Of a DNA stretch of 64,000 nucleotides, positions 17,473 to 55,466 are shown one piece after another (the stretch's first letter is position 1; each line of letters opens with the position of its first letter). This stretch comes from an uncultured Tenacibaculum sp. (GTDB lineage: Bacteria > Bacteroidota > Bacteroidia > Flavobacteriales > Flavobacteriaceae). Made by a program: the position numbers and the translations under genes. The DNA is taken from assembly GCA_937922085.1 (NCBI GenBank), contig CAKZVD010000028.1, forward strand, positions 3,542-67,541, given 5' to 3'. Under the pieces are notes generated by a model. That model did not search any database. It worked only from the letters and a program-made list of their open reading frames with translations, and had not been told where the DNA came from.

Positions 17473-17605
17473 GTTATCAAGAAAGGTGGAGGGATTAGAC
17501 CCTGTGAAGCCTTAGCAACCCTTTGTTCTATACAAAGAAGGTGCTAAATTCTACCAAAACATTATTTCAAAAACATTTTGAAATAATAAAAAAAGGATAG
17601 ATAAC
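17473..17605 (+). ncRNA. SAM-I type riboswitch upstream of metY
   Basis: gttatcaagaaaggtggagggattagaccctgtgaagccttagcaacc...aggtgctaaattc...gataac; P1 gttatc/gataac; lies before Met genes. Confidence 0.9.
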
Positions 17606-33923: not shown

Positions 33924-34811
33924 ATGAAAGCAAAAAATATAACAGATTTTGTAGGAAATACACCTTTAGTAGAAGCTACAAGTATCATAAATAAAGAAAA
34001 AGTACGCTTATTTTTAAAATTAGAAGGACATAACCCTGGAGGAAGTGTAAAAGATAGGGCAGCCTATTTTATGATTTCTGAAGCTTTAAAAAAGAATAAT
34101 ATAAAAAAGGGAGATACTTTAGTAGAAGCAACAAGCGGAAACACAGGTATTGCATTAGCGTTAATGGCTAAAGTATTAGGGTTGAATATGGTTTTGGTAA
34201 TGCCAGAACATGCTACTATAGAAAGAGTGAAAACAATGCGTGCTTATGGAGCTGAGGTTATTTTAACACCAACAGCTGATGGAATGGAAGGTGCGATAGA
34301 TCATGCATTAGAGTTAAAATATAAAAAAGGATATTTTAGATTAAATCAGTTTGATAATTTAGATAATCCTAAAGCACATTATAGTACTACTGGACCCGAA
34401 ATTTGGAGAGATACCGAAGGGCAAATAACACATTTTGTTTCAGCAATGGGTACTACAGGAACTATTACTGGGGTATCAGATTATTTAAAAGAACAGAATA
34501 AAGAGGTTACCATTGTTGGGGTTCAACCAAAAGAAGGTGCAAGAATACCTGGTATTAGAAAATGGCCAGAAGAATATTTACCAGCAATCTTTAAAAGAGA
34601 AAAAATAGATCAGGTTTTAGAAGTAAATCAAGAGGAAGCAAAAGCAATGACGATTCGGTTGGCAAGAGAAGAGGGGATTTTCTCTGGAATGAGTAGTGGA
34701 GGAGCTGTTGCTTCTGCATTAAAATTAGCAGAAACACTTGATGAAGGTATTATTGTAGCTATTATTTGCGATAGAGGAGATCGTTATTTGTCTTCGGATA
34801 TTTTTGTGTAA
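33924..34811 (+). CDS. cysM: Cysteine synthase B
   Basis: NPGGSVKDR, ATSGNTG, IPGIRKWP, CDRGDRYLS. Confidence 0.9.
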   Translation: MKAKNITDFVGNTPLVEATSIINKEKVRLFLKLEGHNPGGSVKDRAAYFMISEALKKNNIKKGDTLVEATSGNTGIALALMAKVLGLNMVLVMPEHATIERVKTMRAYGAEVILTPTADGMEGAIDHALELKYKKGYFRLNQFDNLDNPKAHYSTTGPEIWRDTEGQITHFVSAMGTTGTITGVSDYLKEQNKEVTIVGVQPKEGARIPGIRKWPEEYLPAIFKREKIDQVLEVNQEEAKAMTIRLAREEGIFSGMSSGGAVASALKLAETLDEGIIVAIICDRGDRYLSSDIFV

Positions 34812-34927
34812 ACAAGGCTTTTTATCTTAAAAAGAAACTCTTTTGAAACGGTTTTATTTATTTTTACTGTAAATATAATGGGATAAACGCAATTGTGTTT
34901 ATCCTTACGTTGTAAACAATTGAAATT

Positions 34928-35407
34928 ATGAAATTGAAATTATTCTTTTTATTATCATTAGTCTTTAGTTTAAATATGCATAGTCAAGTTATTGAAGAAA
35001 ATGATACAACTTTCATCAAAGACTATTCTCTATTGAAATCAATCAAGGGAAAATGGAAAAATGTGCACAGTTGCATTGATAATATTGAAGTAGATTGTGA
35101 AAATTTTGAAAAATCATTAAAAAAACAATTAGAGTTAAAAAAAAGTGACACTCTAGGATTAAGAACTCAATTTAATATAATATGCAATAACATGAAAAGG
35201 CATATTATTACAATTACTGATAGTCTTATGATTAGCAGAAATGACACCACTACTTTATATCTAGACAATCAATTAAAAAAAGATATTATTTACACAAAGG
35301 GTATTCAAAATGAATACAAAATAAAAGTTATTAAAATTGATAAGGATTATTTTAGATTACACTCAACTGATAACTTATGGTTAGAATTAAAAAAAATAGA
35401 AGATTAA
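34928..35407 (+). CDS. Cassette gene: hypothetical exported protein
   Basis: Signal peptide; flanked by GTTGTAAAC (34909) and GTTTACAAC (35410). Confidence 0.75.
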   Translation: MKLKLFFLLSLVFSLNMHSQVIEENDTTFIKDYSLLKSIKGKWKNVHSCIDNIEVDCENFEKSLKKQLELKKSDTLGLRTQFNIICNNMKRHIITITDSLMISRNDTTTLYLDNQLKKDIIYTKGIQNEYKIKVIKIDKDYFRLHSTDNLWLELKKIED

Positions 35408-35409
35408 CA

Positions 35410-35547
35410 GTTTACAACAAAGCCTAAAAAACATTGCTTACCGATTTTACCACTTTGAAAAATCAATCGCAAAACCAAAATTCAGGTATATTTATAAACT
35501 AAACGCTAAAATAAACGCAACGATTTCTTAGTTGGAACGTTAGAATT
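35410..35547 (+). repeat. attC-like site, family A
   Basis: AAC-aaagc-CTAAAAAACATTGC...GCAACGATTTCTTAG-ttggaac-GTT; similar to 46319 and 50481. Confidence 0.7.
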
Positions 35548-35659
35548 AATATGAAGTAAACACCAAAATTGAACGTTTTACTAAACAGCAAGTATACTTT
35601 ACTCAATTTGAGTTTTTAAAAGTCAAATCTATAGTTATTTTTGAACTCAAATAAACGAA

Positions 35660-36268
35660 ATGAAAAATCACCTATTATTAATCGGATTCTTAATGTTTAT
35701 TGGGAAATTACTCTCTCAAGAAGTTAAAATTCCAAAGATTGAGTTTAAAAATAAAACGGAGGATTTAAATACCTATATAAATCTACTAAAGATAAAAGAC
35801 GAACAAGCTTTGATAATCAAAATAGGAAGTTCTAGTTATTGGTCTAAAGGACTATATTCCGATTTTCTTGTTTTTGAAAATGATGGAAATGTTTCTTTTT
35901 ATAAATGTTTTTTCCCATTTGATACTAATAAAAAACAGAAAATAAAGAAAGAACGAATTAGAAAATCGAAACGAAAACTTTATTGGAATTTCTTATCCAA
36001 TGCTAATCAAAATAATAGGTTTTCAATAGTAAAAAGTATGCTGAATATAAGATCAAAATCTAATGTAGATGGAACAAGTTCTATGATTTCAGTTTCTGAT
36101 GGACTTAATTACTCACTAGAAATTACTCAAGGAAATAAATATTCTGCATTTTCTACTTATTCCCCACACACCTTTATAAAAGAAAAATTTCCAGATTGGA
36201 AAGAACGGAAAAAATTAGTTGAATTAACAAAAGATATTTACGGTTTAATAGAAAAATACTATTGCTAA
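35660..36268 (+). CDS. Cassette gene: hypothetical exported protein
   Basis: Signal peptide; stop codon lies within ATTGCTAAC. Confidence 0.75.
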   Translation: MKNHLLLIGFLMFIGKLLSQEVKIPKIEFKNKTEDLNTYINLLKIKDEQALIIKIGSSSYWSKGLYSDFLVFENDGNVSFYKCFFPFDTNKKQKIKKERIRKSKRKLYWNFLSNANQNNRFSIVKSMLNIRSKSNVDGTSSMISVSDGLNYSLEITQGNKYSAFSTYSPHTFIKEKFPDWKERKKLVELTKDIYGLIEKYYC

Positions 36269-36273
36269 CAAAG

Positions 36274-36655
36274 GTAACCGTTGCACAACCCTATAATTTA
36301 ACAAAAAACAACTTTAAATACCCCTTTTTAAGAGGCTTGTTTTTTTAGTAATTATAAACAGTTTTTAATTTCGAGAGGCTTAAAAAGTAATATATAAAGC
36401 CTATGAACATCGATTTTATTAAAAACAATGTTCATAGGCTTTAGCCTTACTTTTTATGGTCTTTTTTGTGAATTTTAAATACTTTTTCAAATTATAGGCC
36501 ATAGCAGATACATGTATTACTTTATTTGCCTGTTTAATTCCTAATGTATTTATTTTTCGAAGTCCCATAAACTGGGTTAATGTGCCAAAAACAGGTTCTA
36601 CTGTACTTTGCCGTTTCCCTTTCATATAACAACCTTGTTTACTATGTACTCATTT
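36274..36655 (-). mobile_element. IS1182-family remnant (3' end plus transposase C-terminus)
   Basis: KRQSTVEPVFG...AMAYNLKK; terminus gtaaccgttgcacaac. Confidence 0.8.
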
Positions 36656-36916
36656 ATTTTAACTAAAAAAGTGAGTTAATTTTGTACACTTCTATAAAAG
36701 TTTTATTTGAAAAGTGTACAAAAATTTTATATTGAAAACATTGTGCTACTATTATTATTATTATTTTATAAATTTAAGCTCGAAAAAAGATTAAGAAATA
36801 AGTGATTAAACCTCCTATTCCTTTTTATTTTTAAAAATAAAATATAAACAACATAATGGAGATAAACACAATTGTGTTTAGCCCTTCGTTAGCAAAAATT
36901 TCAAATCACAGCTCAA

Positions 36917-37813
36917 ATGTCAATTATAATTGCTAAGATCGAAGATGACTCTTGTGTATTTAGATCAGATACAAAAGTTTCTATTTTAAATGGAGACGAC
37001 TCAGTTACTGGTGATAACAAGCTACGCTTAAATCCGAATGAGGGCGTTTTAAAAGTTCACATCATTCATCCAGCTATTTGTTTGGCTTTTGCAGGAACAG
37101 TAAACGTTTGTGTAAATATTATTTACGATTTATGCCGCAAACTACCATTAGAACTTAATGAAATATTAACTTTTCTACAAGAGAGCTTAATAGGATATGA
37201 TGATGATTCAGAATTTATCTTAGGTTCTTATTACTTTGAAAAATTAGAATTATATAAAATTGGAAATCAAGGAATAGAAAAAGGAAATTCATTTTGGATT
37301 GGAAATCAAGATGCATTCTCAGAATTCCAGTCATATTACAATAGTGATAATAGAAAAAAATCTTCAAATGACAGATTTCGTGAATCCTTTTATGATTTAA
37401 TTAGATTTTCAAAAATACCCACGATAGGAGACTTTATCATAAGTAGTTATTTTAGGAATAGTCATAAATGCTTTGTTTACAAAGAAGCTTTGATTTCAAA
37501 TAGTGGATATGGGATAATTAAAGCAAAAGCGAATGTACCAACTACTTTATCTGAAGGAACTGTTTTTGAAGGAGCGTTTACTGTTACTAATTTGGTTTCA
37601 GATAGAATTCTGAGACCAGCAGTATGTTTATATTTTCAAAAAGGGCAAATAGCTTATTTATATTTTCCGATTTCAAATTTAGTAAAATCAGCTATTCCGA
37701 TTGTTATAAAAAATATTACCCTAGAAAATCTAAAAGTGGAAGTACATAAACAATATGGAATTAACTTGATTGGATGGTCTTTGAATTTGGGTCACATAAA
37801 AATAGTTAAGTAA
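36917..37813 (+). CDS. Cassette gene: hypothetical, Ntn-hydrolase/proteasome-beta-like N-terminus
   Basis: M-SIIIA...SDTK...K...LAFAG pattern; flanked by GTTAGCAAAA and TTTTACTAAC. Confidence 0.6.
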   Translation: MSIIIAKIEDDSCVFRSDTKVSILNGDDSVTGDNKLRLNPNEGVLKVHIIHPAICLAFAGTVNVCVNIIYDLCRKLPLELNEILTFLQESLIGYDDDSEFILGSYYFEKLELYKIGNQGIEKGNSFWIGNQDAFSEFQSYYNSDNRKKSSNDRFRESFYDLIRFSKIPTIGDFIISSYFRNSHKCFVYKEALISNSGYGIIKAKANVPTTLSEGTVFEGAFTVTNLVSDRILRPAVCLYFQKGQIAYLYFPISNLVKSAIPIVIKNITLENLKVEVHKQYGINLIGWSLNLGHIKIVK

Positions 37814-37854
37814 ATTAATAACTTTATGAATAAAAAAAACTTTTACTAACACCT

Positions 37855-38496
37855 GTAACCGTTGCACAACCCCATAATTTCACAAAAAACAACTTTAAAT
37901 AAGCCTTTTCAAGAGGCTTGTTTTTTTAATAATCGTAAACTGTTTTTAATTTAGAGAGGCTTAGAAAGTAATATATAAAGCCTATGAACATCGATTTTAT
38001 TAAAAATAATGTATTTATGGCTTTAGCCTTACTTTTTATAATCTTTTTTGTGAATTTTAAATATTTTTCAAATTATAGGTCATAGCAGATATATACATCA
38101 CTTTATTTGCCTGCTTAATTCCAATGTGTTTATTTTTCGAAACCTCATAAACTGGATTAATATACCAAAAACAGGTTCTACTGTACTTTGCCGTTAGCCT
38201 TTCATATAACGACCTTGTTTACTATTTATTCGTTTATTATTGCGTTCATATTCTTCTCAGTAATAGGTAACACTAAACTTTTTCTCTTTTGCTGTTTCTT
38301 TATATAAAAAATCTAATTGAAGTATGTCTTTTAATCGTCTGTAAAAATTAGTTACGGGTACATGATCGCTTAAGCGAAAACTATTAAATAACTTCTCTTG
38401 GTATATTTTAACGCCTTGCATAAATAAAAATAAGAAACCTATTAAATCTCAACTCTATTCTAATCTTATTTTTTTGTTAACTTGTGCAACAGTCAC
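37855..38496 (-). mobile_element. Internally deleted IS1182-family element retaining both ends
   Basis: Ends gtaaccgttgcacaa and ttgtgcaacagtcac; transposase N-terminus (MQGVKIYQEKLF from 38421) joined to a frameshifted C-terminus. Confidence 0.8.
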
Positions 38497-38539
38497 ACTG
38501 TATAAAAAACATAGGGAGGGTTATGAGTTCGCACAGGCA

Positions 38540-38926
38540 CTCCAAATAAACAAAAATAATATTACCCAAAACCCCGAAATATATGCACAAAGATAAGCTC
38601 TTATGGAACATCCTTTTGGAACTATGAAAAAATGGGGATTTGATCATATTATGACAAAGAAAACTATAAAAAGGGCTTCTGCTGATGTTGGATTTATCTT
38701 CATTGCCTACAACTTGAAAAGAATCATGAATATCATTGGAATAGAAAAAATTAATAAAAATAATAGTTAGTTTTTCTATTCTTTTTACCCTCAAAAAGGC
38801 TTCTTACAAACATTTAAAATTAAAAACATATTGGTTTACATATATTTTCAATCAACCCCTAAATATTGTTATTATTCTTTTAAATCTGAAATATAAAAAA
38901 GTAAACGTGGGTTTTTAGACAAACTG
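38540..38926 (+). mobile_element. Second, divergent IS1182-family fragment
   Basis: Frameshifted EHPFGT...ADVGFIFIAYNLKRIMNI; probable end gtttttagacaaactg. Confidence 0.7.
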
Positions 38927-39034
38927 ACGTTGTAGCACATTTTGACCCATCTTAGTAAAAACTATTAGATTATGTTTATTTGATAAAGTGTAACACTTTA
39001 TCAAAAGTATTGTCTTTAGTAAAAACTAAACCAA

Positions 39035-40795
39035 ATGAATAATAAATTAGTATATGTACTATTCACAATCAGTATAGTATTATTTTCATGTTCTAACAAT
39101 CCAAAAACTAATTCGGCAATTATAACTGGAAAGGTCAATATCAACTGGTCAAAAACTATTAAATTAAGTAACGGAGCAATTACTCTTACAGATTCCTGGA
39201 TTGATCGAATTAACATAGGAGATTCCATCATTGACCTAAATACTGATGGTACGTTTAAAATAAAATTACCTCTAGAAAAATCTAACTTTTACAGCCTTTC
39301 TCACGAATCAAATGAAATCCAATTATTCCTTTCACCAAATGATTCTCTTCATATCGACTTTAACTCAGAAATCGTGTTTTCTGGCAAGGGTGGAAAACAA
39401 AATAATCATTTAAAATCTTTGAGAGATCAAATTAATTTAAATAGAAAATATATTAATGGAATTGATTTTTATACACAGTCATCTGATGCTGTAAATTCTA
39501 TTTTAGATTCTTTGGAGTTAGTTTATATGAATACACATAAAAAATTTAAAAAAAGTACTCCAGTAAATGAGATTTTTGAACAAAAAATAGTAGCAGATAT
39601 GGCCTATAGAAATAAACTCTATAAAATAAGTCATCCTTCAATATTTAAGAAAAACACGAATAAAAAGCTTCCTATAAAAAAGACTTATTATGAAGATATT
39701 GCTAAAGGAAGTTTTGATAATCCAGAATTATTAAAATCACTCGATTATATATTGTTTTTAGATAGTTATTTAGCTGCACAATCGGCTGGAGAATATAAAT
39801 ATGATATTTATTTTGAAGCTCCAATAGAAAAAATACATCCAAAATATAAAGAGATCCAAAAATTAGAAGCAGATCAAGAAATTAAAAATTATTTATTTAG
39901 TCAGCACCTTCATAAAAGTATGGACGATTACGGTGTTTCATATCTTGAAGACTTAATACCAAAATTTAGAGAAGATTGCAAAAATCCTTTGTTGGTAAAA
40001 CAAATTGAAGATCGTTTTCAAAAAGGTGTTGAGAGAAGAAAAGAAGCAAGTACAATCAAAATCTATAAAAAAATAGGAAATATTGAACTTGAGGCTCATA
40101 TTTTTTATCCTGAAAATTTTAAAGAAAGTGATCAAAGACCCGCTTACTTATTTTTTCATGGTGGTGGTTGGGCAATAGGAATGCCAGAATGGGGATACAA
40201 GAATTGCAAAAAATATAGTTCCAAAGGAATGGTTGCTATTTCGTTTGAGTATCGATTAGTTGATATCCATAATTCCAACATTCAAGATTGCGTTAGAGAT
40301 GCCAAATCTGCGATCTTATGGGTACGAAAACAAGCCAAATCATTAGGTGTAGATCCAAATAAACTTGTCGCAGCAGGATTTTCCGCTGGAGGACATCTGG
40401 CTGCATCTACGGCTATTTTAAAAGGGTATGAAGAAACAAATGATTCTGGAATAAGTTCTATACCAGACGCCATTGTTGTACATTCTGCATCATACAACAC
40501 ACTGAAAAACGAATGGTTTTCAAGGCAATCAGAACAAAACCCTAAATCTATTTCTACATTTCATCAACTAGATAAAAATCTTGTTCCTTCTATCTTTTTC
40601 CATGGAACCAATGATCATTTAGCCCCTATAAATGAGTTTACAGAGTTTAGAGACAAAATGGATGCTCTTGGCAATGATTATGAATATAAAATCTTTAAGA
40701 ATGTTGGTCATTTTTTTAATAACTCTGCAGCACGAAAAACTGTGGATGAAATGACAGAAGCTTTTTTTGTGAAATTAGGATATTTAGAAAAGTAA
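39035..40795 (+). CDS. Cassette gene: lipoprotein with C-terminal alpha/beta-hydrolase (esterase)
   Basis: Lipobox LFSC; HGGGW, GFSAGG, HGTND, GH. Confidence 0.85.
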   Translation: MNNKLVYVLFTISIVLFSCSNNPKTNSAIITGKVNINWSKTIKLSNGAITLTDSWIDRINIGDSIIDLNTDGTFKIKLPLEKSNFYSLSHESNEIQLFLSPNDSLHIDFNSEIVFSGKGGKQNNHLKSLRDQINLNRKYINGIDFYTQSSDAVNSILDSLELVYMNTHKKFKKSTPVNEIFEQKIVADMAYRNKLYKISHPSIFKKNTNKKLPIKKTYYEDIAKGSFDNPELLKSLDYILFLDSYLAAQSAGEYKYDIYFEAPIEKIHPKYKEIQKLEADQEIKNYLFSQHLHKSMDDYGVSYLEDLIPKFREDCKNPLLVKQIEDRFQKGVERRKEASTIKIYKKIGNIELEAHIFYPENFKESDQRPAYLFFHGGGWAIGMPEWGYKNCKKYSSKGMVAISFEYRLVDIHNSNIQDCVRDAKSAILWVRKQAKSLGVDPNKLVAAGFSAGGHLAASTAILKGYEETNDSGISSIPDAIVVHSASYNTLKNEWFSRQSEQNPKSISTFHQLDKNLVPSIFFHGTNDHLAPINEFTEFRDKMDALGNDYEYKIFKNVGHFFNNSAARKTVDEMTEAFFVKLGYLEK

Positions 40796-40823
40796 TGAAT
40801 TTAACTAACGTGCTAGAACAACG

Positions 40824-41295
40824 GTAGCCGTTACACAACCTTATAATTTCACAAAAAATTACTAAAAAATAAGCCTTTTTAAGAGGCTTATTTTTTAGTA
40901 ATTATAAACTGTTTTTAATTTAGAATTCCTTAAAAAGTAATATATAAAGCCTATGAACATCTATTTTATTAAAAACAATGTATTTATAGTCTTAGCCTTA
41001 CTTTTTATGGTCTTTTTTGTGAATTTTAAATACTTTTTCAAATTATAGGCCATAGCAGATACATGCATCACCTTAATCCCTAATGTATTTATTTTTCGAA
41101 GTCCCATAAACTGGGTTAATTTGCCAAAAACAGGTTCTATAGTACTTTGGCGTTTGCCTTTCATATAACGCTCTTGTTTGCTATGTACTTTTTCAGTAAG
41201 CTCTAATTATAAACTGGGTTAATGTGTCAAAAACGGGGTCTACAGTACTTTGGCGTTTGCCTTTCATATAACGCCCTTGTTTACTATGTACTCAT
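40824..41295 (-). mobile_element. IS1182-family remnant with internal tandem duplication
   Basis: KRQSTIEPVFG...AYNLKK; ~41107-41190 repeated at ~41210-41290. Confidence 0.8.
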
Positions 41296-41680
41296 TTATT
41301 TTAACTAAAAAAGAGAGTTAATTTTGTACACCTTTAAAAAAATAGTGATAACGAAGTGTACACTTTTATTTGAAAAGTATACAAAAATTTTAATAAAAAT
41401 ATAGACACATTATCCGTAGTTTGTTTTTTCAAAACATTAAAATAATATAACAAAGTGATACTATTGTATAAAAATTATATAATAAAAACATTGTGCCTCT
41501 ATTATTATTTTATAAATTTAAGCTCGAAAAAAAGATGAAGAAATAAGTGACTAAACCTCCTTTTTCCTTTTTATTTTCTAATATAAAAATTTTAAAACAA
41601 TATAAAAGGTACACTTTATACCATTATTTGGTTGTATAAATGTAATAGTACATTTATATAGTTGTTGTATGTTATTAGAA

Positions 41681-42133
41681 CTATCGTTTCGTCTTTCCTC
41701 TTTCCTGTATATTAGTTGGCCAAAAATCGTGTTCTTTATCTAAAAAAACTATATAATAGACATCATTTTCAACATATCCCGCAACAACTTCTTTACTATT
41801 TGGCTTTATATGAATTACAGCCCAATAAGATGGTTTAACATGTTTTGGCTCGTCAAAATTTGAACATAATGGAAAACCTATCTTAGTATATTGTTTTATT
41901 AACTGTTGCGCTAAAGCATCTGGTGCACTATATTGACTAATTTGTTTCAACCTTTCCATTAATGGACGTAACAGTTTGTAATCTTCCCATTCCTTGATAT
42001 CTTGTCCAAAAGAAACTATATGTTTTTCCCAACTAAAACTTATTTTCCTTTGCTTTGGGCCTTTTGCTTTTCTTTTACCTGGTTTGTTTTCATATTGTTT
42101 ATACCATTCTGTATCATAATTATTTTCACTCAT
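41681..42133 (-). CDS. Putative RelE-like (MAG6450-like) toxin/ribonuclease
   Basis: C-terminal VAGYVENDVYYIVFLDKEHDFWP; start overlaps the ATPase stop. Confidence 0.55.
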   Translation of the reverse strand: MSENNYDTEWYKQYENKPGKRKAKGPKQRKISFSWEKHIVSFGQDIKEWEDYKLLRPLMERLKQISQYSAPDALAQQLIKQYTKIGFPLCSNFDEPKHVKPSYWAVIHIKPNSKEVVAGYVENDVYYIVFLDKEHDFWPTNIQERGKTKR

Positions 42134-43349
42134 ACAAAAAAGATATAAGAGGTTCTACTATATTTATTGACTCAGCTCCACCAAAAGTACTTTCTAAATA
42201 TTTTTTTCTAAAATCAGAAGTGTTTTTTACTACCGAAGTATCGAAACTAGACATTGGATATAACTCTGAAACACCAAACTGGTCTTTATCAGTAAACCAT
42301 ATTTGATCTCTTCTAAATATATCTTTATCTAAAAGTGTCGCATCATGCGCCGTGAAAATGAATTGTGCGTTTTTTTTATTAAATCTATGAAAGAAAGAAA
42401 TAAGTTTTCTTGTTAGATTAGGATGGAACTTAGAGTCAAACTCGTCAATAAACAAGACCTTGCCATACTTAAGTGTATCATAAAGTGCTCCCAAAAAATA
42501 AATTAATTTTCTTGTTCCTTGACTCTCTTCTTTATCAATATCAAAAGGAACAGAATCTATAATAAAATCATTCTCATCATATTTATTGTGGTATGCCAAA
42601 AGCTTATTTTCATTAACTCCTGATTCTACTGAACTAATTTCTAAAAATTTAACTGCTAGAGAAAGCCAATTTTTAAAATTAGGATCTTCTCTTAATAAAA
42701 TAGAAGTAACATTAGAGAAATGTGTATTATCTAGTCCACTAATAATATTAGCATTTTCAAACCAATTAAATACTTGCTTTGATATCTGAGCATTATTCTG
42801 AGCTAAATAACTAAGGAAAAGAACGTTTTTATTAACCTGTGACTTATACTTATTACCTTCCTTAAAGCTTTTATGATTTATCTCAAATTTTGAATTTAAC
42901 CTACTAAAAAGTAAAGTTTCAGTATTAATTTTTCGATAAAGCCATTCTTTTACAATTATTTCACCTAAAATTTCAAAACCATATCTATAAAAAACTCCTT
43001 GCTCAAAAAAAGAAATTTCAAAAAAAGAAGGTTTATTTTCAGTCTCTTGACTTAACTTAAAGTAAAAATCATTCCTTTTTTTATCCTCTTTTTTCTTAAG
43101 TGAATTAGCAAAAGAATTATGAACTAAGTCTTCCATAAAACCAAAAGCTGAAATAAAATTACTTTTACCTCCTCCATTACTACCATAGACAGCTACGGAT
43201 TTCATTAAATTTATATTCTCATTTAGATCAACCAAATTATCATCTAAATGTTCTTTATATGATTTTACAGAAGACATTAAAAGTTTGTTCTCATTTTTAT
43301 ATGAGAGGAAATTTTTAAATTTAAAATCTATTAGCATTTTAAAATACAT
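42126..43349 (-). CDS. AAA_21/RloA-like ABC-type ATPase (start may be 43337)
   Basis: YGSNGGGKS, ESQGT, FIDEFDSKFHP, FTAH, RRDQIWF. Confidence 0.9.
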   Translation of the reverse strand: MYFKMLIDFKFKNFLSYKNENKLLMSSVKSYKEHLDDNLVDLNENINLMKSVAVYGSNGGGKSNFISAFGFMEDLVHNSFANSLKKKEDKKRNDFYFKLSQETENKPSFFEISFFEQGVFYRYGFEILGEIIVKEWLYRKINTETLLFSRLNSKFEINHKSFKEGNKYKSQVNKNVLFLSYLAQNNAQISKQVFNWFENANIISGLDNTHFSNVTSILLREDPNFKNWLSLAVKFLEISSVESGVNENKLLAYHNKYDENDFIIDSVPFDIDKEESQGTRKLIYFLGALYDTLKYGKVLFIDEFDSKFHPNLTRKLISFFHRFNKKNAQFIFTAHDATLLDKDIFRRDQIWFTDKDQFGVSELYPMSSFDTSVVKNTSDFRKKYLESTFGGAESINIVEPLISFLYE

Positions 43350-43356
43350 TTAGTTG

Positions 43357-43364
43357 CAAAAATA
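43357..43364 (-). promoter_or_regulatory. Bacteroidetes -7 element for the inverted cassette
   Basis: TATTTTTG (TAnnTTTG) just upstream of the ATPase start. Confidence 0.55.
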
Positions 43365-43411
43365 CAACAAAAAACACATATTCTGCCAAATAATGGAAGA
43401 AATAAAAAAAC

Positions 43412-43611
43412 AACATACAACAATCTATAAAAAACATAGAGCGGTTTAGGCTTGCCAAAAGGTCACTATTTATTTATAAAGTCGCCAAATATAAAATTTG
43501 GCATTTTCAACAAAAAAGATAAAAGCAAAATATTATATTTGACTAAGTATTAAACTCGAAATGTAGTGCTTATCCTCTGCCCTACGTGTTTTATACTAAA
43601 CGTTAGCTATA
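43412..43611 (+). repeat. attC-like site, family B (~200 bp)
   Basis: AAC-aatc-TATAAAAAACATAGAGCGG...CTGCCCTACGTGTTTTATA-ctaaac-GTT. Confidence 0.7.
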
Positions 43612-43619
43612 ATTAAAAA

Positions 43620-43907
43620 ATGAACACAATATTCTCTACACTGATGATGTCATCTTGGGTTTTAGGAATAATTTTAGTTTTAACATCTAATCCTGTTCGA
43701 ATTATATCTAAGGTTAAAGATTTTGATACAAACATAAATAAACCTTTTTATGGTTTTAAACATATTAGAAAAGCTATTTCTTTAACTTCAGATAATGCGA
43801 TTATTGAAAAATTGAAAAAGAAAATATTAATAAGAAAAATAGGATATTCTTTTTTGATAATAACTCCTGTTTTATTCATTCTTGGGGGAATATTTGATCG
43901 CCAATAA
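43620..43907 (+). CDS. Small 2-TM hypothetical protein
   Basis: 95 aa ORF just after core GTTAGCTATA. Confidence 0.65.
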   Translation: MNTIFSTLMMSSWVLGIILVLTSNPVRIISKVKDFDTNINKPFYGFKHIRKAISLTSDNAIIEKLKKKILIRKIGYSFLIITPVLFILGGIFDRQ

Positions 43908-44029
43908 AAAAGTTATATAAATCTGAATAATGTTCTATTGAAATAATTATAATTGAAAAACTGACCTGAATTTGAATTACTACTTTAATAAATAATAATT
44001 TTATTGTAGCTGAAAAATAATTTATTGTA

Positions 44030-44470
44030 ATGAAAGAGTTAATAGATTTAATAGCTCAAAAACACAGAGTAGATGGAATAAAAATAAATCCTTGCGCCTC
44101 TAACTTTGATATAACTGAATTTGAAAACAAAGTTGGATTTAATTTACCTCAAAATTTTAGAGAATTCTATCTTACCTGTAATGGATTTAGCTGTGAAGAA
44201 GATATTTTTAATATAATGTCTCTTTCAGAAATAACAGACCGATGGGAAAATTATAATGATAATTGGTTTTACTTTTCAGAATATATGATTTATTCAGATA
44301 TGTGGGGCATTAGGATTACTGAAACTGGAGAATATGAAATATTTAATGGAAGTTATCCTAAAAAAACAATTACATCCTCTCTTGAAGAGTTTTTAAAAAG
44401 GTTCTTCAAAGGAAATGTGTTTGACAACGGAGGACTTTATGATTGGCACGAAGAACTTAAAATAAAATAA
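44030..44470 (+). CDS. SMI1/KNR4 family (immunity-type) protein
   Basis: PCASNFDITEFENKVGFNLPQNFREFYLTCNG; SLEEFL. Confidence 0.85.
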   Translation: MKELIDLIAQKHRVDGIKINPCASNFDITEFENKVGFNLPQNFREFYLTCNGFSCEEDIFNIMSLSEITDRWENYNDNWFYFSEYMIYSDMWGIRITETGEYEIFNGSYPKKTITSSLEEFLKRFFKGNVFDNGGLYDWHEELKIK

Positions 44471-44471
44471 C

Positions 44472-44669
44472 TATAGCTAAGACTATATAAAAAGCATAGG
44501 ACGGTTAAGTGTTGTATTGAAAATGTTTTGTTTTTTTGCTGGGTTGTCAAATATAAAATTTGCATTTAAACTAAAATTAAAAACAAAATATTTATATTTA
44601 GCTAAGTGTTAAATCCGAAGTATAGTGCTTATCAACTGCCTTACTTTTTATATACTAAACATTAACTAC
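44472..44669 (+). repeat. attC-like site, family B (degenerate ends)
   Basis: Shares caaatataaaattt, caaaatatt..atattt.ctaagt and tagtgcttatc..ctgcc with 43412. Confidence 0.7.
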
Positions 44670-44679
44670 AATAAAACTC

Positions 44680-45504
44680 ATGATTCCGAAAATTAGTAAG
44701 TTCTACTATTATTTTTATTCAGAAAACCCTCACGCTCTAATACAGTTAATTGGTGATGCAACTGAGTACCATTCAGACTACTCTATTTCAAAGTCAAAGC
44801 AAGAAATGTTTCAAAAGCATCAGTTGTATTGTCAATTATTAAACACAATCGAATTTACACTTGAAAGTTACGGTTACATTAATTTTTTCTCAGAATACGA
44901 AGACTTAGTAGGTGAATTGCCATCTCTTTGTGAATTACTTGAAGAATTTGGGCATTTAGATGTAGTAGAAAACATAAATCAAGCAACGAATTTTTATGAA
45001 AAATATTCGAATCAATTTGAATCTTTACAAAACACGTCGTTGGAACATGATGAAATAGATGCTATTTACGACAAGTTAGATTCAAATTTTGATTCAAAAT
45101 TTGACCTAAATGAACCTATGCTACATCTTTCTAAACAAATAAAAAACACCCCTAATAATTTTTGTTTGGATGAGAACGGTAAGTCTTTTGAAATGGAATT
45201 TACTGGACAACTAGAAACCTTCTATGCGAATAAAAATCTTCAAAAAAGATACTCATTTCATAAAGGTGAAGTACACGGTGAGTGTTTTGAATTCGATTTT
45301 GATGGAAATAAAGAAAGCCTATACTTTTATAAAAATGAACACTCTTACGAACAACTAAAACAATGGTATAAAAATGGCAACTTAAAATATGAAAAATATG
45401 CAGATGATGTTTATAAATATTGGCATGAAAATGGACAACTCCGTATAGAAAGAAATGGAGAAGTTTTTCAAAAGTGGGATAAAAATGGAAAAAAAATAAA
45501 GTAG
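44680..45504 (+). CDS. DUF4375-like domain plus MORN-variant (YwqK-like) repeats
   Basis: WYKNGNLK, WHENGQLR, WDKNGK repeats. Confidence 0.65.
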   Translation: MIPKISKFYYYFYSENPHALIQLIGDATEYHSDYSISKSKQEMFQKHQLYCQLLNTIEFTLESYGYINFFSEYEDLVGELPSLCELLEEFGHLDVVENINQATNFYEKYSNQFESLQNTSLEHDEIDAIYDKLDSNFDSKFDLNEPMLHLSKQIKNTPNNFCLDENGKSFEMEFTGQLETFYANKNLQKRYSFHKGEVHGECFEFDFDGNKESLYFYKNEHSYEQLKQWYKNGNLKYEKYADDVYKYWHENGQLRIERNGEVFQKWDKNGKKIK

Positions 45505-45556
45505 TTAACACTATGTAAAAAAACATTGAAACGCATTTTACATTAACCGTTGTACT
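45501..45556 (+). repeat. Short attC-like site (56 bp)
   Basis: AAC-act-ATGTAAAA...TTTTACAT-taacc-GTT. Confidence 0.7.
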
Positions 45557-45561
45557 CAATT

Positions 45562-46335
45562 ATGAAAAACCCTTTTTGGAAGATAAAATCTATACTAATA
45601 TTATTATTTATACCGTTTTCCATATTTCTTATATTTATTTCAATTTTACTGATTTTATTTAATGAAAAGGATGGATATCTAGTGAGCTTATTATTAACCT
45701 CATTAGGAATAATATTATTTATTTACTCATTAAGATATGTGATAAAAACCAACAAATCTTTCAAAAATGATTTAATAGTTTTCCTGAATGATGATTCAAG
45801 GTTAATAGAGTTATTTAACTATGAGAAAACAGAATGGAACGTTTTTGCTGAAATTTATTACAAAAAAAGAATCAAGAATTATAAGATAATAATGTTTATT
45901 TTAATTCCTATAATAACATCTTTTATGATTCTTATTTATAAAGAAGATTATAGATTATTTATCTTGTTATCTTTTTTGTTCCTTTCAATATTTACTTTTG
46001 TTTTTCTATTCCTAAGAAAATCTCTAATAGAATTTAAATCTAAACTGTTTGACTTTGAGAACCCTGAGGCTAGAGTAACCACGTCAGGAATTCTAATTAA
46101 CAAGAACTATGTAGTATCCTATAATAATCAGGATGGGTTACTAACAAAATGTACATTCGTAGTATTTATAAATATAAAATGTTTTGAATTTACGATTAGA
46201 AGGGCAAGCGGAAAAGGACATACCTACCAATACTTTAATCTATTGATACCAAAAGAAAGAGAGCACGATTCTATAATGATAGAAAGTAGGATAAATGAAT
46301 ATGCTGTGCCAAAAACTAAGTACAACAAAACCTAA
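45562..46335 (+). CDS. Cassette gene: 4-TM membrane protein
   Basis: Flanked by GTTGTACT and AGTACAAC. Confidence 0.75.
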   Translation: MKNPFWKIKSILILLFIPFSIFLIFISILLILFNEKDGYLVSLLLTSLGIILFIYSLRYVIKTNKSFKNDLIVFLNDDSRLIELFNYEKTEWNVFAEIYYKKRIKNYKIIMFILIPIITSFMILIYKEDYRLFILLSFLFLSIFTFVFLFLRKSLIEFKSKLFDFENPEARVTTSGILINKNYVVSYNNQDGLLTKCTFVVFINIKCFEFTIRRASGKGHTYQYFNLLIPKEREHDSIMIESRINEYAVPKTKYNKT

Positions 46336-46453
46336 AAACATTGCTGGCGGATTTCCCCCTTGGAAAAATATTCGCAAAGTTCCAATGTTCAGGTATTTTT
46401 ACTAAATTAACAACTAAACTAATGCAACGTTTTTTAGCTAAAACGTTAACGAT
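46319..46453 (+). repeat. attC-like site, family A
   Basis: AAC-aaaac-CTAAAAACATTGC...GCAACGTTTTTTAG-ctaaaac-GTT. Confidence 0.75.
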
Positions 46454-46463
46454 CATATAAAAG

Positions 46464-46808
46464 ATGAAAAGATTTAAAACCGAAAAGATGATCCACTTTA
46501 TCTACCAGATGCTTATGTACATGGGTGATGTGACTAGAGACAATATTGTTTCTTTTATGCATGGCGCTGATTTCGGTAAATGGAATGAGTCACATTGGAC
46601 GAAATTGCTAAATGAATTTATCGTAATCAAATATAAAATTGAAGAACGAGCAATGGGTTGACCTTATCAAGTTGAGTTATTAAGTAAACGGGAAGGAATT
46701 GAATGGAATGAAGGTTTTAAGAAACTAATGCTTGAAATGATTAGTAAATCTGAGCAAATACCATTTACTAAGAAAATGCAGAACTGGATTAACGATTTAG
46801 AGAACTGA
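46464..46808 (+). pseudogene. Hypothetical gene interrupted by an in-frame TGA
   Basis: ...RAMG*PYQVELLSKREGIEW...; frame stays open for 48 more codons. Confidence 0.6.
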
Positions 46809-46907
46809 AAATTAAATACGATGTTTAATTCAATTTGTATAATTGAAAAATGGTGAATTACGAATTTAAATTCATTGAAAATAACGATGAATTAACTTGA
46901 TGAAACA

Positions 46908-47135
46908 ATGAGTAGATCGAAACAGAAAACTAAAATTCACGGAAATACAACGGCTAAATCTGAAAAAGAAAACAAGCAAAACGCAAATAGAAAATTTAGA
47001 CGAATTGTTAAACAAAAAGTAAAACTGAATAAAGAGAGTTTACCCGAACTAAGGGAAGTCTCAAATGTTTGGTGTTTTGATAAGGATGGGAAAAGATATA
47101 ATTTGGAAATGACTGAAAAAGATCTTCGAAAATGA
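46908..47135 (+). CDS. Small basic hypothetical protein
   Basis: 75 aa: MSRSKQKT...SEKENKQNANRKFRR...SNVWCFDKDGK. Confidence 0.65.
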   Translation: MSRSKQKTKIHGNTTAKSEKENKQNANRKFRRIVKQKVKLNKESLPELREVSNVWCFDKDGKRYNLEMTEKDLRK

Positions 47136-47140
47136 AACTA

Positions 47141-47299
47141 TACGCTAACACTATATATGTGATGAATCGATTGGTTCGTGTATATTAGGTAAGGTACAAT
47201 GCTTACAGATATAAAGTTAACAAACTTTATATCTGTAAATTATTAGCTAAATTTAGAACTTAAATACGTAACTAATCTTATATAAACACGGTTATAGAC
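47141..47299 (+). repeat. attC-like site with long internal hairpin
   Basis: AAC-acta-TATATGTGAT...ATCTTATATA-aacacg-GTT; internal ttacagatataaagtt/aactttatatctgtaa. Confidence 0.65.
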
Positions 47300-47312
47300 G
47301 ATTAGAACTGAA

Positions 47313-47477
47313 ATGTATTTTAGAAACAAAAGAAACATTTATGGAGTAGATATTGGAACCCCTTTAATATATGCAGGTAATCAACCCCAAAGGCTAATTC
47401 CTTATAATTATTCCGGATTAAAAAGTTTTGAAAAAAAATGTTCTTATAAATATGTTTGTACCAATAACTTGAAATAA
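47313..47477 (+). CDS. 54-aa ORF or decayed gene in a ~290 bp cassette
   Basis: MYFRNKRNIYGVDIGTPLIYAG... between GTTATAG (47291) and CTGTAAC (47571). Confidence 0.35.
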   Translation: MYFRNKRNIYGVDIGTPLIYAGNQPQRLIPYNYSGLKSFEKKCSYKYVCTNNLK

Positions 47478-47570
47478 AAAACAACAAAATTTTACAACTA
47501 TGATAACGGAATAAAACACTTGATAAAAGAAATAAAAACTAAAAGGATAATTAAATACTATTAAAAGAGA

Positions 47571-47625
47571 CTGTAACAATATATAAACTGTATTAAAATG
47601 ACAGTTTAAACAAAACGTTATATCT
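47571..47625 (+). repeat. Short attC-like site (55 bp)
   Basis: AAC-aatata-TAAACTGT...ACAGTTTA-aacaaaac-GTT. Confidence 0.65.
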
Positions 47626-48372: not shown

Positions 48373-48689
48373 ATAAAAAGGCCATTTTAATCAATTGTAG
48401 AGTTGTGCAACAGCCACAATAACTATAAGTAATGCGGAATTTTGGTGTTATCCGAAGGTAGAAGTGTAAATTAAAGCCTGAAAAAACCTTACTTAGAGTC
48501 TTTATCGTCAAGGATAAAAAAATTAAAATATTTATGTTAGTACCAATCCGAAGTGTATCATTTATCCTAAGTTTTTTTAGATGAAAACAAAAAATAAAAT
48601 ACTATTTTGTTTTTAACAACTAATGAGCAATATTCAAAAGAATAGTGTATAAATTTAACTTTGATTTTAATAATTGATATAAATAAAAA

Positions 48690-49926: not shown

Positions 49927-50499
49927 ATGAAAAAGAAAACTCACTTAAAAATAATATTCACATTATTTATTAGTAATTTTTTGACTGCTCAACATACAGA
50001 AAAATTTAAAAAATTGATTTCTAATTTAAAACTTATTGATACAATAAAAATCAATAAAAAATATAAAAACGGGAATCAAAAAGAGATAGGGAACTATAGC
50101 GTTTATGAATTAAATGATTTTGAGTATGAACAACTTTCTGGAAAACATATTACATATTATAGCAATGGACAAATATTGGAAGAAACTACTTACGATAACT
50201 TTGGGATTGTCTTAAAATGGAAATTGTATGATGGACTAGGTAATTTACAACAAGAACTTAAAACAATAAAAATTGATACAGATAAAGAAAGTTTAGATGA
50301 ACTCTTAAATGATAACAATTCTATTGATATAATAATTGAAGAAAAAAAGTATAAATTTTCAGATAAAATATGTGGTTGGTTTTTAATTAAAGAAGGGCAA
50401 AAAATTAATGGTAAAAAAATTGGGAAATGGAAAAAATATTATCCTAATGGAGAAGTCAAAAAAGTAAAAGAATATAAAGCTTTATACAATAAAACCTAA
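49927..50499 (+). CDS. Exported MORN-variant repeat protein
   Basis: YKNGNQK, YYSNGQI, GKWKKYYPNGEVK. Confidence 0.7.
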   Translation: MKKKTHLKIIFTLFISNFLTAQHTEKFKKLISNLKLIDTIKINKKYKNGNQKEIGNYSVYELNDFEYEQLSGKHITYYSNGQILEETTYDNFGIVLKWKLYDGLGNLQQELKTIKIDTDKESLDELLNDNNSIDIIIEEKKYKFSDKICGWFLIKEGQKINGKKIGKWKKYYPNGEVKKVKEYKALYNKT

Positions 50500-50634
50500 A
50501 AAAATATAGTTTATGGGGCATTTGGAAAATCTTCAAAGAATTCAAATGTTTAGGTGTATTTATAAATTAAAAGCAAAGATTAATAATATGTATAAATCAC
50601 ATTTACTAAGTGTTTAATCGAATATTATTAGTTT

Positions 50635-51378
50635 TTATTCAATCCATTTTCTAAATTCACTTGTTGCAGATGCACTTGTAATTAAATGTTGTTTGTAATT
50701 TTTTATTGAAATTGCCAATCTATCTCCAAAATAAGGTTCAATTTTTTCTATGAAATTGATATTTACAATTTCACCACGATTAATTTGAAAAAACTCTTTC
50801 GGATTTAACTCTTTTATTAAATCAGATAATTTGTAACGAAATTCATTTTCTTTTCCGTTTTCATCAATCGCAATACATTTACCTGAATTAGATAAAATTG
50901 CTCCTGTATTTTTAGTAGTTAAAATTTTTATTTCTGTTTTAGTTTTTATGATAATACGTTCTTTGTAATTATTATTTAACCCATGAATTGTTTCTGATAT
51001 TCTCTTCCAATCAACTTCCTTATTTTGTAAACTTTCAAACTTTTCCATTGCTTTACTAAACTTATTATAGCTAATAGGTTTTAATAAATAAGCTATTCCG
51101 TTTACATCAAAAGCGTCTTGATAAAAAGTGTTGTAGGCGGTTGTAAAAATGATAGGTGATTTTATAATATTGGTTTTTAATAATGAAAACACATTTCCAT
51201 CTAACAATTCAATATCAGAAAACACCAAGTCAACTTGTTCATTGGTTTCATACCATTTTTCAACTTCTTCTTTACTTTGTAATGAAGCTACAATTTCTAT
51301 TTTGTCGTTATATCGAAGAATATGATCCGTAATAATTTCGATGTTAATAGCCTCGTCTTCTATAATTAATACTTTCAT
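50635..51378 (-). CDS. LytTR-family response regulator
   Basis: IEDE, SDIEL, YLLKP, FFQINRGEIVN. Confidence 0.9.
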   Translation of the reverse strand: MKVLIIEDEAINIEIITDHILRYNDKIEIVASLQSKEEVEKWYETNEQVDLVFSDIELLDGNVFSLLKTNIIKSPIIFTTAYNTFYQDAFDVNGIAYLLKPISYNKFSKAMEKFESLQNKEVDWKRISETIHGLNNNYKERIIIKTKTEIKILTTKNTGAILSNSGKCIAIDENGKENEFRYKLSDLIKELNPKEFFQINRGEIVNINFIEKIEPYFGDRLAISIKNYKQHLITSASATSEFRKWIE

Positions 51379-52415
51379 ATTTCTGAAATTAAAGGGATTT
51401 CAACAATAAATTCATTATTAGTTTCTGTAAAAAGAACGTCTTTGTTAAAATTAAGTTGATATTGACGTTTTAAATAATCGTTTCCCGTTCCTGTTCCGAG
51501 CGTAAAATCTACTTTGTTCAATTTATTTTTTATAACAATGGTATCTTCTTGTAATGAAAGCGAAATTAATAACGGATTTTCTTCACTTCCTTTATTATGT
51601 TTTATCGCATTTTCTATACATAACTGTAACGAGCACGGAACAACAAAACCACTTGTGTTTTCAATAGTATTTTCAATTTGATATGTATTTCCGAAACGTT
51701 TTTCCATCAAATTCATATAACTTGTTAAGAAAGATAGTTCTTCTTTTAACTCAACCAGTTGTTTTTTTCCATGGTTTAAATAGTAACGATATACATCTGA
51801 AAAATCATCTATAAAATCTTCTATTTGTTCTGGTTTTTTTCTTGCTAATCCTGATAAAACACTCAAATTATTGAATAAAAAATGAGGCTCTAAATTTTTC
51901 TGCAACATTTGCGATTGTATTTTAGCTTTTTCTTTTTCGGCTTGTTCTAATTCTATTGCTATTTTTTGAGATTGCCTAAAGTATAAAAAAGCAGAAGTAA
52001 GCGCAAAAATATCAACCAATATAAAAGCAACTGACAGCGTATTTATAATCCTATAAATAATATCATATTCTAGTTTATTACTTAAAATAACATGTAAAAC
52101 AACATAATCGATAATAATACCCATTAAGGTAAATATGAAAAAAGATAAAATATAAACTTTTACAAATTTTAAAATGGTATTTGTAGCATCTATTTTATTT
52201 ATAAATTTCCAAGAAATGAGTACCGATAGTAATGAAAGTATAGAAAATATTAAAATAGATAAGTGATCAAAATAGTCATAAAAATCAATATCACTAGTAT
52301 TAGCATTTGTACGTAAGCTATAAAAGAAAAAAATTTTAGCACTATTACTGATTAACAATAGTACAATTACTATTAAAATTTGTTTTAGATTTATTCTTTG
52401 ATTGAAGACCTTCAC
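51375..52415 (-). CDS. LytS-type membrane histidine kinase
   Basis: Four TM helices; LEPHFLFNNL, ENAIKHN. Confidence 0.9.
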   Translation of the reverse strand: MKVFNQRINLKQILIVIVLLLISNSAKIFFFYSLRTNANTSDIDFYDYFDHLSILIFSILSLLSVLISWKFINKIDATNTILKFVKVYILSFFIFTLMGIIIDYVVLHVILSNKLEYDIIYRIINTLSVAFILVDIFALTSAFLYFRQSQKIAIELEQAEKEKAKIQSQMLQKNLEPHFLFNNLSVLSGLARKKPEQIEDFIDDFSDVYRYYLNHGKKQLVELKEELSFLTSYMNLMEKRFGNTYQIENTIENTSGFVVPCSLQLCIENAIKHNKGSEENPLLISLSLQEDTIVIKNKLNKVDFTLGTGTGNDYLKRQYQLNFNKDVLFTETNNEFIVEIPLISEI

Positions 52416-52455
52416 TTCTTTATTATTTTAGATTTACAAAATACATTTTTAGTTT

Positions 52456-52498
52456 AAAAAAACCGTTTAAAGCATTTAATTCTTTAAACAGTTTTTTT
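52456..52498 (-). terminator. Hairpin downstream of the outer-membrane protein gene
   Basis: aaaaaaaccgtttaaag...ctttaaacagttttttt. Confidence 0.55.
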
Positions 52499-52507
52499 AT
52501 AGATTGA

Positions 52508-54977: not shown

Positions 54978-55302
54978 GAAACAAAAAAAGTATATTAACA
55001 ATACACTTAAAAATGAACTATTATTAATTTGTTTTTTTAACTTCTAGAGCTACATTCATTGAATTGTATACTTATTTAACCTTATCTGTTTGATTGAGTT
55101 TGTATCTCATTTATAAATGGGAAAGGAGAATTTAAACAGAATTAATAAATTTACACTCTGTATAATTTTAGTTATTTAGTTGGAATTTAAAGTTTAATAC
55201 AAGAGATAATTGATATTATAAAAGAAAAAAATAAAATTTAACAGTAATTTTAAAAAGGTAACTGTTATATTTACCACCAAATTAGTTCATTAATTTATTG
55301 AT

Positions 55303-55416
55303 GTTATCAAGAAAGGTGGAGGGATTAGACCCTGCGAAACCTTAGCAACCCTTTGTGTAAACAAAGAAGGTGCTACATTCTACTGGTATGTGTTAAAACA
55401 TATGCAGAGAGATAAC
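55303..55416 (+). ncRNA. SAM-I type riboswitch upstream of metH
   Basis: Near-identical 5' core to the 17473 copy; P1 gttatc/gataac. Confidence 0.9.
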
Positions 55417-55466
55417 GGAAAGATTTTACTTCTCTTTTCCTGATAACAAACTTTAAAATATCAGGA

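Follow-up and report, generated by a model that had tools for sequence, protein, structure and literature searches.

The window analysed here, a 64,000-nucleotide (nt) stretch of DNA from an uncultured Tenacibaculum sp. (contig CAKZVD010000028.1 of assembly GCA_937922085.1), carries between about 34.9 and 50.6 kb a run of genes separated by inverted-arm sites with AAC and GTT core triplets. Judged from sequence, these sites are structured cassette ends that resemble the attC sites of integrons, fail the geometry that defines attC, and go with a tyrosine recombinase other than IntI. The copy in the window is decayed, so that it documents the system and is no active example of it. Our reading, which we consider probable, is that they form the cassette ends of an array now in decay and are likely recombination sites of an integron-like Bacteroidota system, in which a tyrosine recombinase without the IntI insertion is predicted to cut the folded bottom strand at G/TT. 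The host assembly (3.67 Mb, 28% G+C, 68% complete) contains the window as contig C28; in what follows G000 is this genome, C-numbers are contigs, other G-numbers are genomes of relatives and L-numbers are fetched locus stretches.

A preliminary description of this DNA had reported that at six sites the gap from AAC to the left arm is 2 nt shorter than the gap from the right arm to GTT, and gapped alignment of the arms reproduces the spacer pairs at all six: 5/7 at 35410 (AAC 35416, GTT 35539), 4/6 at 43412 (AAC 43419, GTT 43602), 3/5 at 45501 (AAC 45507, GTT 45549), 5/7 at 46319 (AAC 46324, GTT 46445), 4/6 at 47141 (AAC 47147, GTT 47291) and 6/8 at 47571 (AAC 47575, GTT 47617). Measured from RYYYAAC to GTTRRRY, these sites are 134, 194, 53, 132, 155 and 53 nt long, and a decayed one at 44475-44667 spans 193 nt. 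When set against sites of relatives, the four spacings turn out to be a single register of AAC, 3 nt, a 16-bp stem, the centre, 5 nt and GTT; the 4/6, 5/7 and 6/8 spacers are only apparent, because the outermost stem pairs have decayed and the first reading therefore began the arm later. The right arm at 35410 carries one additional base, and the left arm at 46319 has a one-base irregularity, an alternative gapless reading there giving a 3-nt asymmetry. The two recurring site families that had been named are real (A, 77% over 133 nt; B, 80% over 128 nt), with a weak further copy of A at 50481 (E 0.008) and a fragment of B at 38495. A family covariance model trained on relatives alone returns five of the six window sites as its top five matches in the 64 kb, at 59.0, 47.8, 18.0, 17.3 and 16.9 bits, of which the first two alone are clearly significant. 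The 194-nt site, B1, is recovered by a profile scan that gives no match in 506 kb of backbone DNA, and together these results indicate that the sites are not chance.

The constant 2-nt asymmetry thus stands within the window, but it does not extend to the site family. The profile scan, run over 30 stretches of relatives (539 kb) with right spacers of 3-8 nt allowed, found 310 sites, in which the right spacer is 6 nt in 248 (an asymmetry of 3 nt), 5 nt in 60 and 7 nt in 2. Three matches lay in the opposite orientation, and none was found in 69 kb around classical integrons. Most of the sites are 130-139 nt long (270), with smaller classes at 190-199 nt (30) and 60-69 nt (4). A scan of 20 relatives' array stretches (340 kb) that was blind to strand and offset gave an offset of +3 in 62 sites, +2 in 8, +6 in 42 and other values in 22, against 7 matches in backbone DNA (300 kb) and 7 in shuffled sequence; we take the +6 offsets to be those sites again, read from an adjacent AAC or GTT. 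Right-arm patterns searched through 43 whole genomes matched 601 times with the 6-nt spacing and 127 times with the 5-nt spacing (22 and 8 in the reversed controls). Since 6-nt right spacers prevail across these scans, the 2-nt asymmetry is a minority form and not the hallmark of the class that it was taken to be, the features that are kept being a left spacer of 3 nt and, on the bottom strand, a pair of fixed G·T wobbles. A two-arm pattern matches in 91 of 120 genomes, one per genus of the host's bacterial family, and does so at least five times in 56 of them, with the reversed control never exceeding three. The stretches of G016:C1 at 1.80-1.85 and 2.95-3.05 Mb (L079-L081, L094) hold 149 right-arm matches, many spaced only 430-620 nt apart and with near-identical sites, which suggests repeated gene-poor cassettes.

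Covariation was examined in 35 non-redundant 130-nt sites read as bottom strands, and the stems do covary: 95% of the cells are paired and 14 of the 16 stem pairs vary on both sides, a result reached by none of 500 shuffles, while slid registers pair at 34-51%. Stem positions 11-14 and 17 are free in sequence and keep their pairing; the outer positions 4-8 are conserved in sequence. The left arm is free of bulges, an extra base occurring in the opposite arm in 5 of the 35 rows, and the stem of the relatives' sites has no classical extrahelical base, which bears out the earlier remark that no conserved bulge is evident. At positions 10 and 15 after AAC, about four of five sites show an A·C mismatch on the top strand that becomes a G·T pair on the bottom strand. 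Top-strand A·C outnumbers G·T by 125 to 2 in a strand-neutral seed and by 101 to 3 in 46 non-redundant sites, mostly at these two positions. Folding of both strands gave a divided answer: among relatives the bottom strand is lower in energy in 61 of 64 non-redundant sites, by a mean of 2.9 kcal/mol, but the whole-site folds of the window are mostly local.

The classical geometry against which the sites were compared was taken from 64 rows of the attC_4 alignment (PMC4889954), which with about one exception have a left spacer of 5 nt; the fourth base of L'' is unpaired in them and the right spacer is mostly 5-6 nt. A geometry count representing the classical model (a 5-nt left spacer, an 8-nt L'' with the extrahelical base at position 4, a 7-nt L' and a 5-6-nt right spacer) reaches 7/7 pairs in 2 of the 310 relatives' sites and in none of seven window sites, where B1 reaches 6, and four classical control sites pass it; the bulge-less register reaches 7/7 in 289 of the 310, sites that had been selected with a bulge-less model. 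Run on four classical integron loci, the family model finds nothing significant (best 14.7 bits, E 0.35). With classical attC sites, including those in clusters lacking an integron integrase (CALIN), the sites share their core triplets, their place after each gene, their single orientation and their variable terminal part, as well as chimeric outer boxes with a G/TT crossover and a more stable bottom strand with G·T pairs, as passages of PMC5027507 describe these for attC. They differ in a left spacer of 3 rather than 5 nt, in an asymmetry of +2 or +3 (right spacer 5-6 nt) rather than 0 or +1, and in having no extrahelical base in the left arm, the optional extra base lying in the arm opposite. 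Unlike classical attC, they also have a 16-bp A/T-rich stem, two position-fixed wobbles and length classes near 55-68, 130 and 190-199 nt. Chromosomal integrons of Treponema, in the sections of PMC3607928 that treat them, offer a likeness in an integrase transcribed toward the cassettes and in mixed site lengths; their attC keeps the protruding G of the L box, which the sites here lack. Comparison of the sites with Rfam matched no family at any threshold. Flavo-1 RNA (RF01705), a repeated intergenic Bacteroidetes motif that was a first lead, was set aside on the same Rfam result, and those of its published alignment rows that are given in part in PMC2864571 look unrelated.

If crossover takes place at G/TT, the bases before AAC should complement those behind the GTT of the previous site. 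The six bases outside AAC were accordingly compared with the complement of the six bases after the upstream GTT, and the end boxes agree with the previous GTT at five or more of six positions in 239 of 263 cassettes, whereas the GTT of the same site agrees this well in 38 of 263. Nine window cassettes agree at 45 of 54 box bases where 0.31 per base is expected, a count that leaves out two stretches with decayed ends at 46.5-47.1 and 47.6-48.4 kb. Contigs assembled from other runs show the same boundary: the 53-nt site at 45503 recurs in contigs of three of them with flanks that are unrelated from GTT on, the likeness ending at 45542-45553, with breaks at 45551-45553 that fit a G/TT crossover, and in a contig of run X3, which belongs to the same study as the possible source run, the 45550 cassette stands behind a different site, the likeness beginning at 45547.

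The arrays of relatives begin behind a tyrosine recombinase of 360-400 aa that is aimed at the array and has behind it a half site with GTT at its end; in the five loci shown, the recombinase is co-oriented at the array head, one of the genes being broken. Relatives of this genome's own recombinase stubs fall into clusters with Bacteroidota as the commonest phylum. The catalytic R-K-H-R-H-Y is unchanged in 25 recombinases, and the IntI insertion is lacking in all 10 full ones. Eight relatives' proteins, four of them shown beside arrays, score 193-211 bits with the integron-integrase model TIGR02249, whose cut-off is 265 and with which true IntI proteins score 394 and 422. In domain make-up the enzyme is nearer XerA, with its best NCBIfam score to NF040815 and its best Foldseek matches to XerA. 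It shares with IntI (TIGR02249; VchIntIA, PDB 2a3v) a SAM-like core-binding domain, intact catalytic residues, a similar C-terminal end and an adjoining attI-like site and array, but unlike IntI it lacks the insertion, stays below the family cut-off, points at the array and carries an extra N-terminal domain of ~80 aa. This domain is predicted with a pLDDT of 87. The top four structural matches of its model are the N-termini of XPB and UvsW (Z 6.5-6.9, root-mean-square deviation 1.8-2.2 over 59-64 aa), and the HARP domain of SMARCAL1 (4o66) follows at Z 4.3 (1.9 over 49 aa); Pfam HARP is reached at E 0.037 in 1 of 12 sequences and at E 0.15 with a profile. The XPB damage-recognition, UvsW and HARP domains have related folds and bind branched DNA. 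A contig scan with a 91-aa stub returned mostly classical IntI loci, which served as an outgroup only. Archaeal and Ignavibacteria recombinases that fall under the IntI cut-off (L009:9482-10315 and L010:411-1331) end near a GTT half site as well and are without a long N-terminal extension.

An attI-like motif, as found in the window at 34874 and 36853, lies ~30 nt behind the 3' end of the recombinase in 5 of 20 loci, and the sequence after its GTT differs nearly every time. Relatives have an attI-like site beside the recombinase with a variable first cassette, and this motif would function as the primary site of the array. Some attI-like sites without an upstream recombinase gene stand behind a conserved non-coding block (window 36715-36850 and 41465-41590; C23 of G000; G096 and G128). 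This block is possibly a promoter-attI module, or else a platform from which the recombinase gene has been deleted; the window block has no match in the regions upstream of intact recombinases, which leaves the deleted-platform reading unproven.

The length of the right spacer may follow the recombinase. Genomes of the G028/G001 clade (support 100 in a quick tree, with G129 and G193 assigned by similarity) hold 77 five-nt and 71 six-nt sites (52% five-nt), the 15 genomes of the main clade hold 44 and 434 (9%), and other recombinase clades are intermediate (24%). G006 and G036, which carry broken genes of the G028/G001 clade, have 4 five-nt sites to 1 six-nt site each. A rank test of 4 versus 12 genomes gives p 0.001, with G028 and G129 being near twins and kinship ignored, and we therefore regard co-evolution of spacer and enzyme as a lead and no established result. 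The G028/G001 clade is the best match, at 56-64%, for three of this genome's four stubs, and as part of the same lead the 2-nt asymmetry of the window may go with the recombinase clade that most local stubs resemble. In G129:C1, a single ~180 kb array at 1.616-1.80 Mb (L136-L138) follows an intact recombinase and contains sites of both spacer lengths, 5 and 6 nt, along with a 68-nt short class; it would make a good test system.

In the mechanism that we propose, the bottom strand would fold into the recombination substrate, and the lopsided spacer loop together with the two wobbles would replace the classical extrahelical base in choosing the strand. The extra N-terminal domain, with its fold like that of the XPB damage-recognition domain, UvsW and HARP, may help to hold the folded site, and new cassettes would enter at the GTT of the attI-like site. 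Classical attC sites stripped of their bulges were still recombined and lost their strand choice, according to a passage of PMC2727003, so that fixed wobbles and a lopsided loop could plausibly stand in for the bulges. The array in the window is likely frozen, given that the recombinase is reduced to stubs in this assembly, and has probably been eroded by insertion sequence (IS) elements.

Several observations weigh against this proposal. The shuffle used for covariation takes no account of kinship, and the sites tested are those that yielded the structure; the profile was trained on 3/6 sites, so that its pair statistics lean to the seed. In whole-site minimum-energy folds of the window, the outer arms are joined in two sites only (35410 and 45503, bottom strand), and unconstrained folding, which gives mostly local hairpins, is not counted as support. 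The match of the modelled N-terminal fold is middling (best Z 6.9), and a quick recombinase tree leaves the link to IntI unresolved (support 86). The assembly, 68% complete, holds no intact recombinase, only four 3' stubs (C16, C30, C49 and C81), none of them in the window; the stub of C16 lies ~300 nt behind a tRNA-like gene (L003, about 10140-10740). Finally, contigs of four runs set over the array gave no clean cassette excision joints or circles.

An alternative is that the cassettes are moved by this recombinase acting on duplex sites, in the manner of Xer or Cre, with the long stem representing two inverted binding sites. The XerA-like domain make-up of the enzyme, its want of the insertion that IntI uses on folded DNA, and the sequence conservation of the outer stem positions 4-8, as expected of binding sites, all lend this idea some weight. 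We nevertheless think it unlikely, because positions 11-14 and 17 vary freely yet remain paired, the mismatches are A·C rather than G·T by about 30 to 1, the arms lie 40-180 nt apart, and the spacers of partner sites differ, where double-strand systems need spacer homology in the account excerpted from PMC2727003. A second alternative, in which the sites are ordinary attC that have diverged, lie in a CALIN and depend on a classical IntI located elsewhere, would explain why boxes, crossover point and bottom-strand bias are those described for attC in parts of PMC5027507, and why 2 of the 310 sites do reach 7/7 classical pairs and B1 reaches 6. Against it stand the 289 of 310 sites that fit the bulge-less register (with the selection noted above), the silence of the family model in the four classical loci and the absence of IntI among the 8 PF00589 matches of this genome, and we give this explanation little credence.

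The sites might instead be selfish or structural palindromes of the REP or MITE kind that attract IS elements and introns, the genes between them having been gathered by other means. IS ends and group II introns do occupy the sites, and the window is without a recombinase; the exchange of boxes in 239 of 263 cassettes, the strict one-way orientation, the attI-like half sites and recombinase at array heads, and the lack of any Rfam family match make this the least probable of the explanations considered. The covarying stem, the missing classical bulge, the cassette-type box exchange and the non-IntI recombinase at the head of intact arrays together uphold the earlier suggestion of a distinct class of structured recombination site.

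A more ambitious reading, which we consider evenly balanced, is that the sites belong to a second, undescribed integron chemistry. It would comprise bulge-less hairpins in which a lopsided loop and two fixed G·T wobbles select the strand, a recombinase in which an N-terminal branched-DNA-binding domain replaces the IntI insertion, arrays that reach about 150 sites and occur through much of one large Bacteroidota family, a spacer length (5 or 6 nt) that co-evolves with the recombinase clade, and site-targeting IS elements and introns of its own. If the system works as we infer, integron surveys miss a large pool of cassettes, including defence-type genes such as the AbiLi-like cassette described below, and neither the IntI insertion nor the extrahelical base is generally required for folded-site recombination. 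The sites would also allow a direct test of the features that select the strand, and the two spacer classes with their two recombinase clades form a natural specificity pair. It seems, from their geometry and from the published IntegronFinder surveys, that standard attC models have overlooked them. The element table of IntegronFinder 2016 has no Flavobacteria row, though its genome list names them 115 times, and in the portions of the version 2 paper bearing on this (PMC9024848) Salinibacter is the only Bacteroidetes member named and Bacteroidota are counted as nearly integron-free; a review places Bacteroidota among the integron-bearing phyla, in the part concerned without detail (PMC8618304). 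A literature search that did not extend to subscription journals or preprint supplements found no description of these sites or of the recombinase with arrays.

The sites are themselves targets of mobile elements. In this genome, all 14 true left ends of an IS1182-type element (PF13751) follow AAC and the next 4 nt (19 pattern matches, of which 5 were dropped as other ends). A second IS type stops immediately before GTT 38929 and, on C49 and C115, where a right arm ends; elsewhere it ends at other sequences. Its remnant at 38524-38928, with a 55-aa open reading frame that has no Pfam match, we presume to be of the IS1182 type too. Insertions of one type or the other are found at 36274, 37855, 40824 and 48400 in the window and on C3, C7, C11, C16, C23, C61, C63, C111 and C115 of G000. 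Remnants of group II introns, identified with Rfam, directly adjoin A/AC of the sites on the bottom strand; they occur on C11, on C115 and twice in G096 (L147:9275-9568, L148:4215-4309, L141:8503 and 13879). IIC-attC introns and IS1111-attC elements likewise sit at the 5' end of classical attC on the antisense strand, as excerpts of PMC3001079 have it, so that the likeness is one of mobile elements targeting the 5' end of cassette sites on that strand; the IS elements differ from IS1111-attC in being IS1182-type (PF13751), with one type inserting behind AAC plus 4 nt and one before GTT. A literature search found no description of site-targeting IS1182 elements.

In the window, the array is a decaying insertion after cysM, with an attI-like site at its head, struck by IS1182-type elements. 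In 12 of 12 relatives checked, picked among 25 with a close cysM, cysM is followed by a SAM riboswitch and metH without intervening DNA, whereas in the window ~20 kb (34.8-55.3 kb) separate them, which marks the array as a lineage-specific insertion. The features that follow are on the forward strand unless stated otherwise. The left border is the cysM-like gene at 33924-34811 (PF00291; synteny in the 12 relatives). The attI-like primary site at 34874-34915, with its GTT at 34909, is 79% like a site of G006 that lies directly behind the recombinase stop. A cassette gene of no Pfam family follows (34928-35407; end boxes match 6/6), then site A1 at 35412-35545 (134 nt, 3/5 register, right arm with one extra base; 47.8 bits). 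The site of the next cassette gene, 35660-36268, is interrupted after AAC plus 4 nt, as IS end mapping shows, by an IS1182-type remnant on the reverse strand at 36274-36850 (PF13751; transposase fragment 36419-36625), which passes into the repeated non-coding block (repeats D1-D3, D6 and D10). A second attI-like site at 36853-36894, GTT at 36888, is a pattern match with 2 mismatches, and the cassette gene behind it, 36917-37813, belongs to no Pfam family (boxes 5/6). An internally deleted IS1182-type element at 37855-38496 (reverse strand; both ends located, family by likeness to copies bearing PF13751) interrupts, after AAC plus 4 nt, a family B site whose left arm is at 38495-38523 (repeat D7), and is succeeded by the remnant of the second IS type, the end motif of which abuts GTT 38929. 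The alpha/beta hydrolase cassette at 39035-40795 (PF20434; boxes 5/6) has its site interrupted by the IS remnant at 40824. A probable third attI-like site may be recognised from sequence at 41600-41637, GTT at 41631, behind the second copy of the non-coding block, its boxes matching those at 43419 in 4 of 6 positions.

Further along stands a reverse-oriented two-gene cassette at 41681-43349, encoding a 407-aa AbiLi-like ATPase (PF13304; PADLOC AbiLi E 1e-77) and a 150-aa partner without a family, which looks like a self-expressed phage-defence cassette. It is followed by B1 (43415-43608, 194 nt, 3/5 register, no bulge; arm alignment and profile scan) and a two-gene cassette at 43620-44470 for a protein of 95 aa and an SMI1/KNR4 protein (boxes 6/6). 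Site B2 at 44475-44667 (193 nt, arm alignment) is decayed, with both core triplets mutated (AAG, ATT), and precedes a cassette gene with a MORN-type repeat (44680-45504, boxes 6/6). Then come the short site at 45503-45555 (53 nt, 3/5; arm alignment, family model and the copies from three other runs), a membrane protein cassette without a family (45550-46335, boxes 5/6) and site A2 at 46320-46451 (132 nt, left arm one base short; 59 bits). A decayed 155-nt site at 47143-47297 keeps the 3/5 register, its right part scoring 18 bits with the family model, and a second short site of 53 nt and 3/5 register lies at 47571-47623 (arm alignment, family model). IS end mapping and sequence place an IS right end and then the left arm of a decayed site at 48400-48600, and the array closes with a decayed family A remnant at 50483-50600 (blastn E 0.008; partial model match of 12.9 bits, E 0.66). 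The right border of the insertion is the SAM riboswitch before metH at 55301-55418 (RF00162; synteny).

Broken cassette genes occupy 46464-46808 and 47313-47477, the first of them covered by a related strain in run X3. Between them, at 46908, lies a gene for 75 aa; relatives of it were found in 6 of 200 genomes, with site-like sequence behind three and none behind the other three. Within the 20-kb insertion and outside the cassette array, a block on the reverse strand at 50635-54874 encodes a TonB receptor, a histidine kinase and a LytTR regulator, and is missing at this locus in the 12 relatives checked. A further SAM riboswitch (RF00162) is present in the window at 17471-17592.

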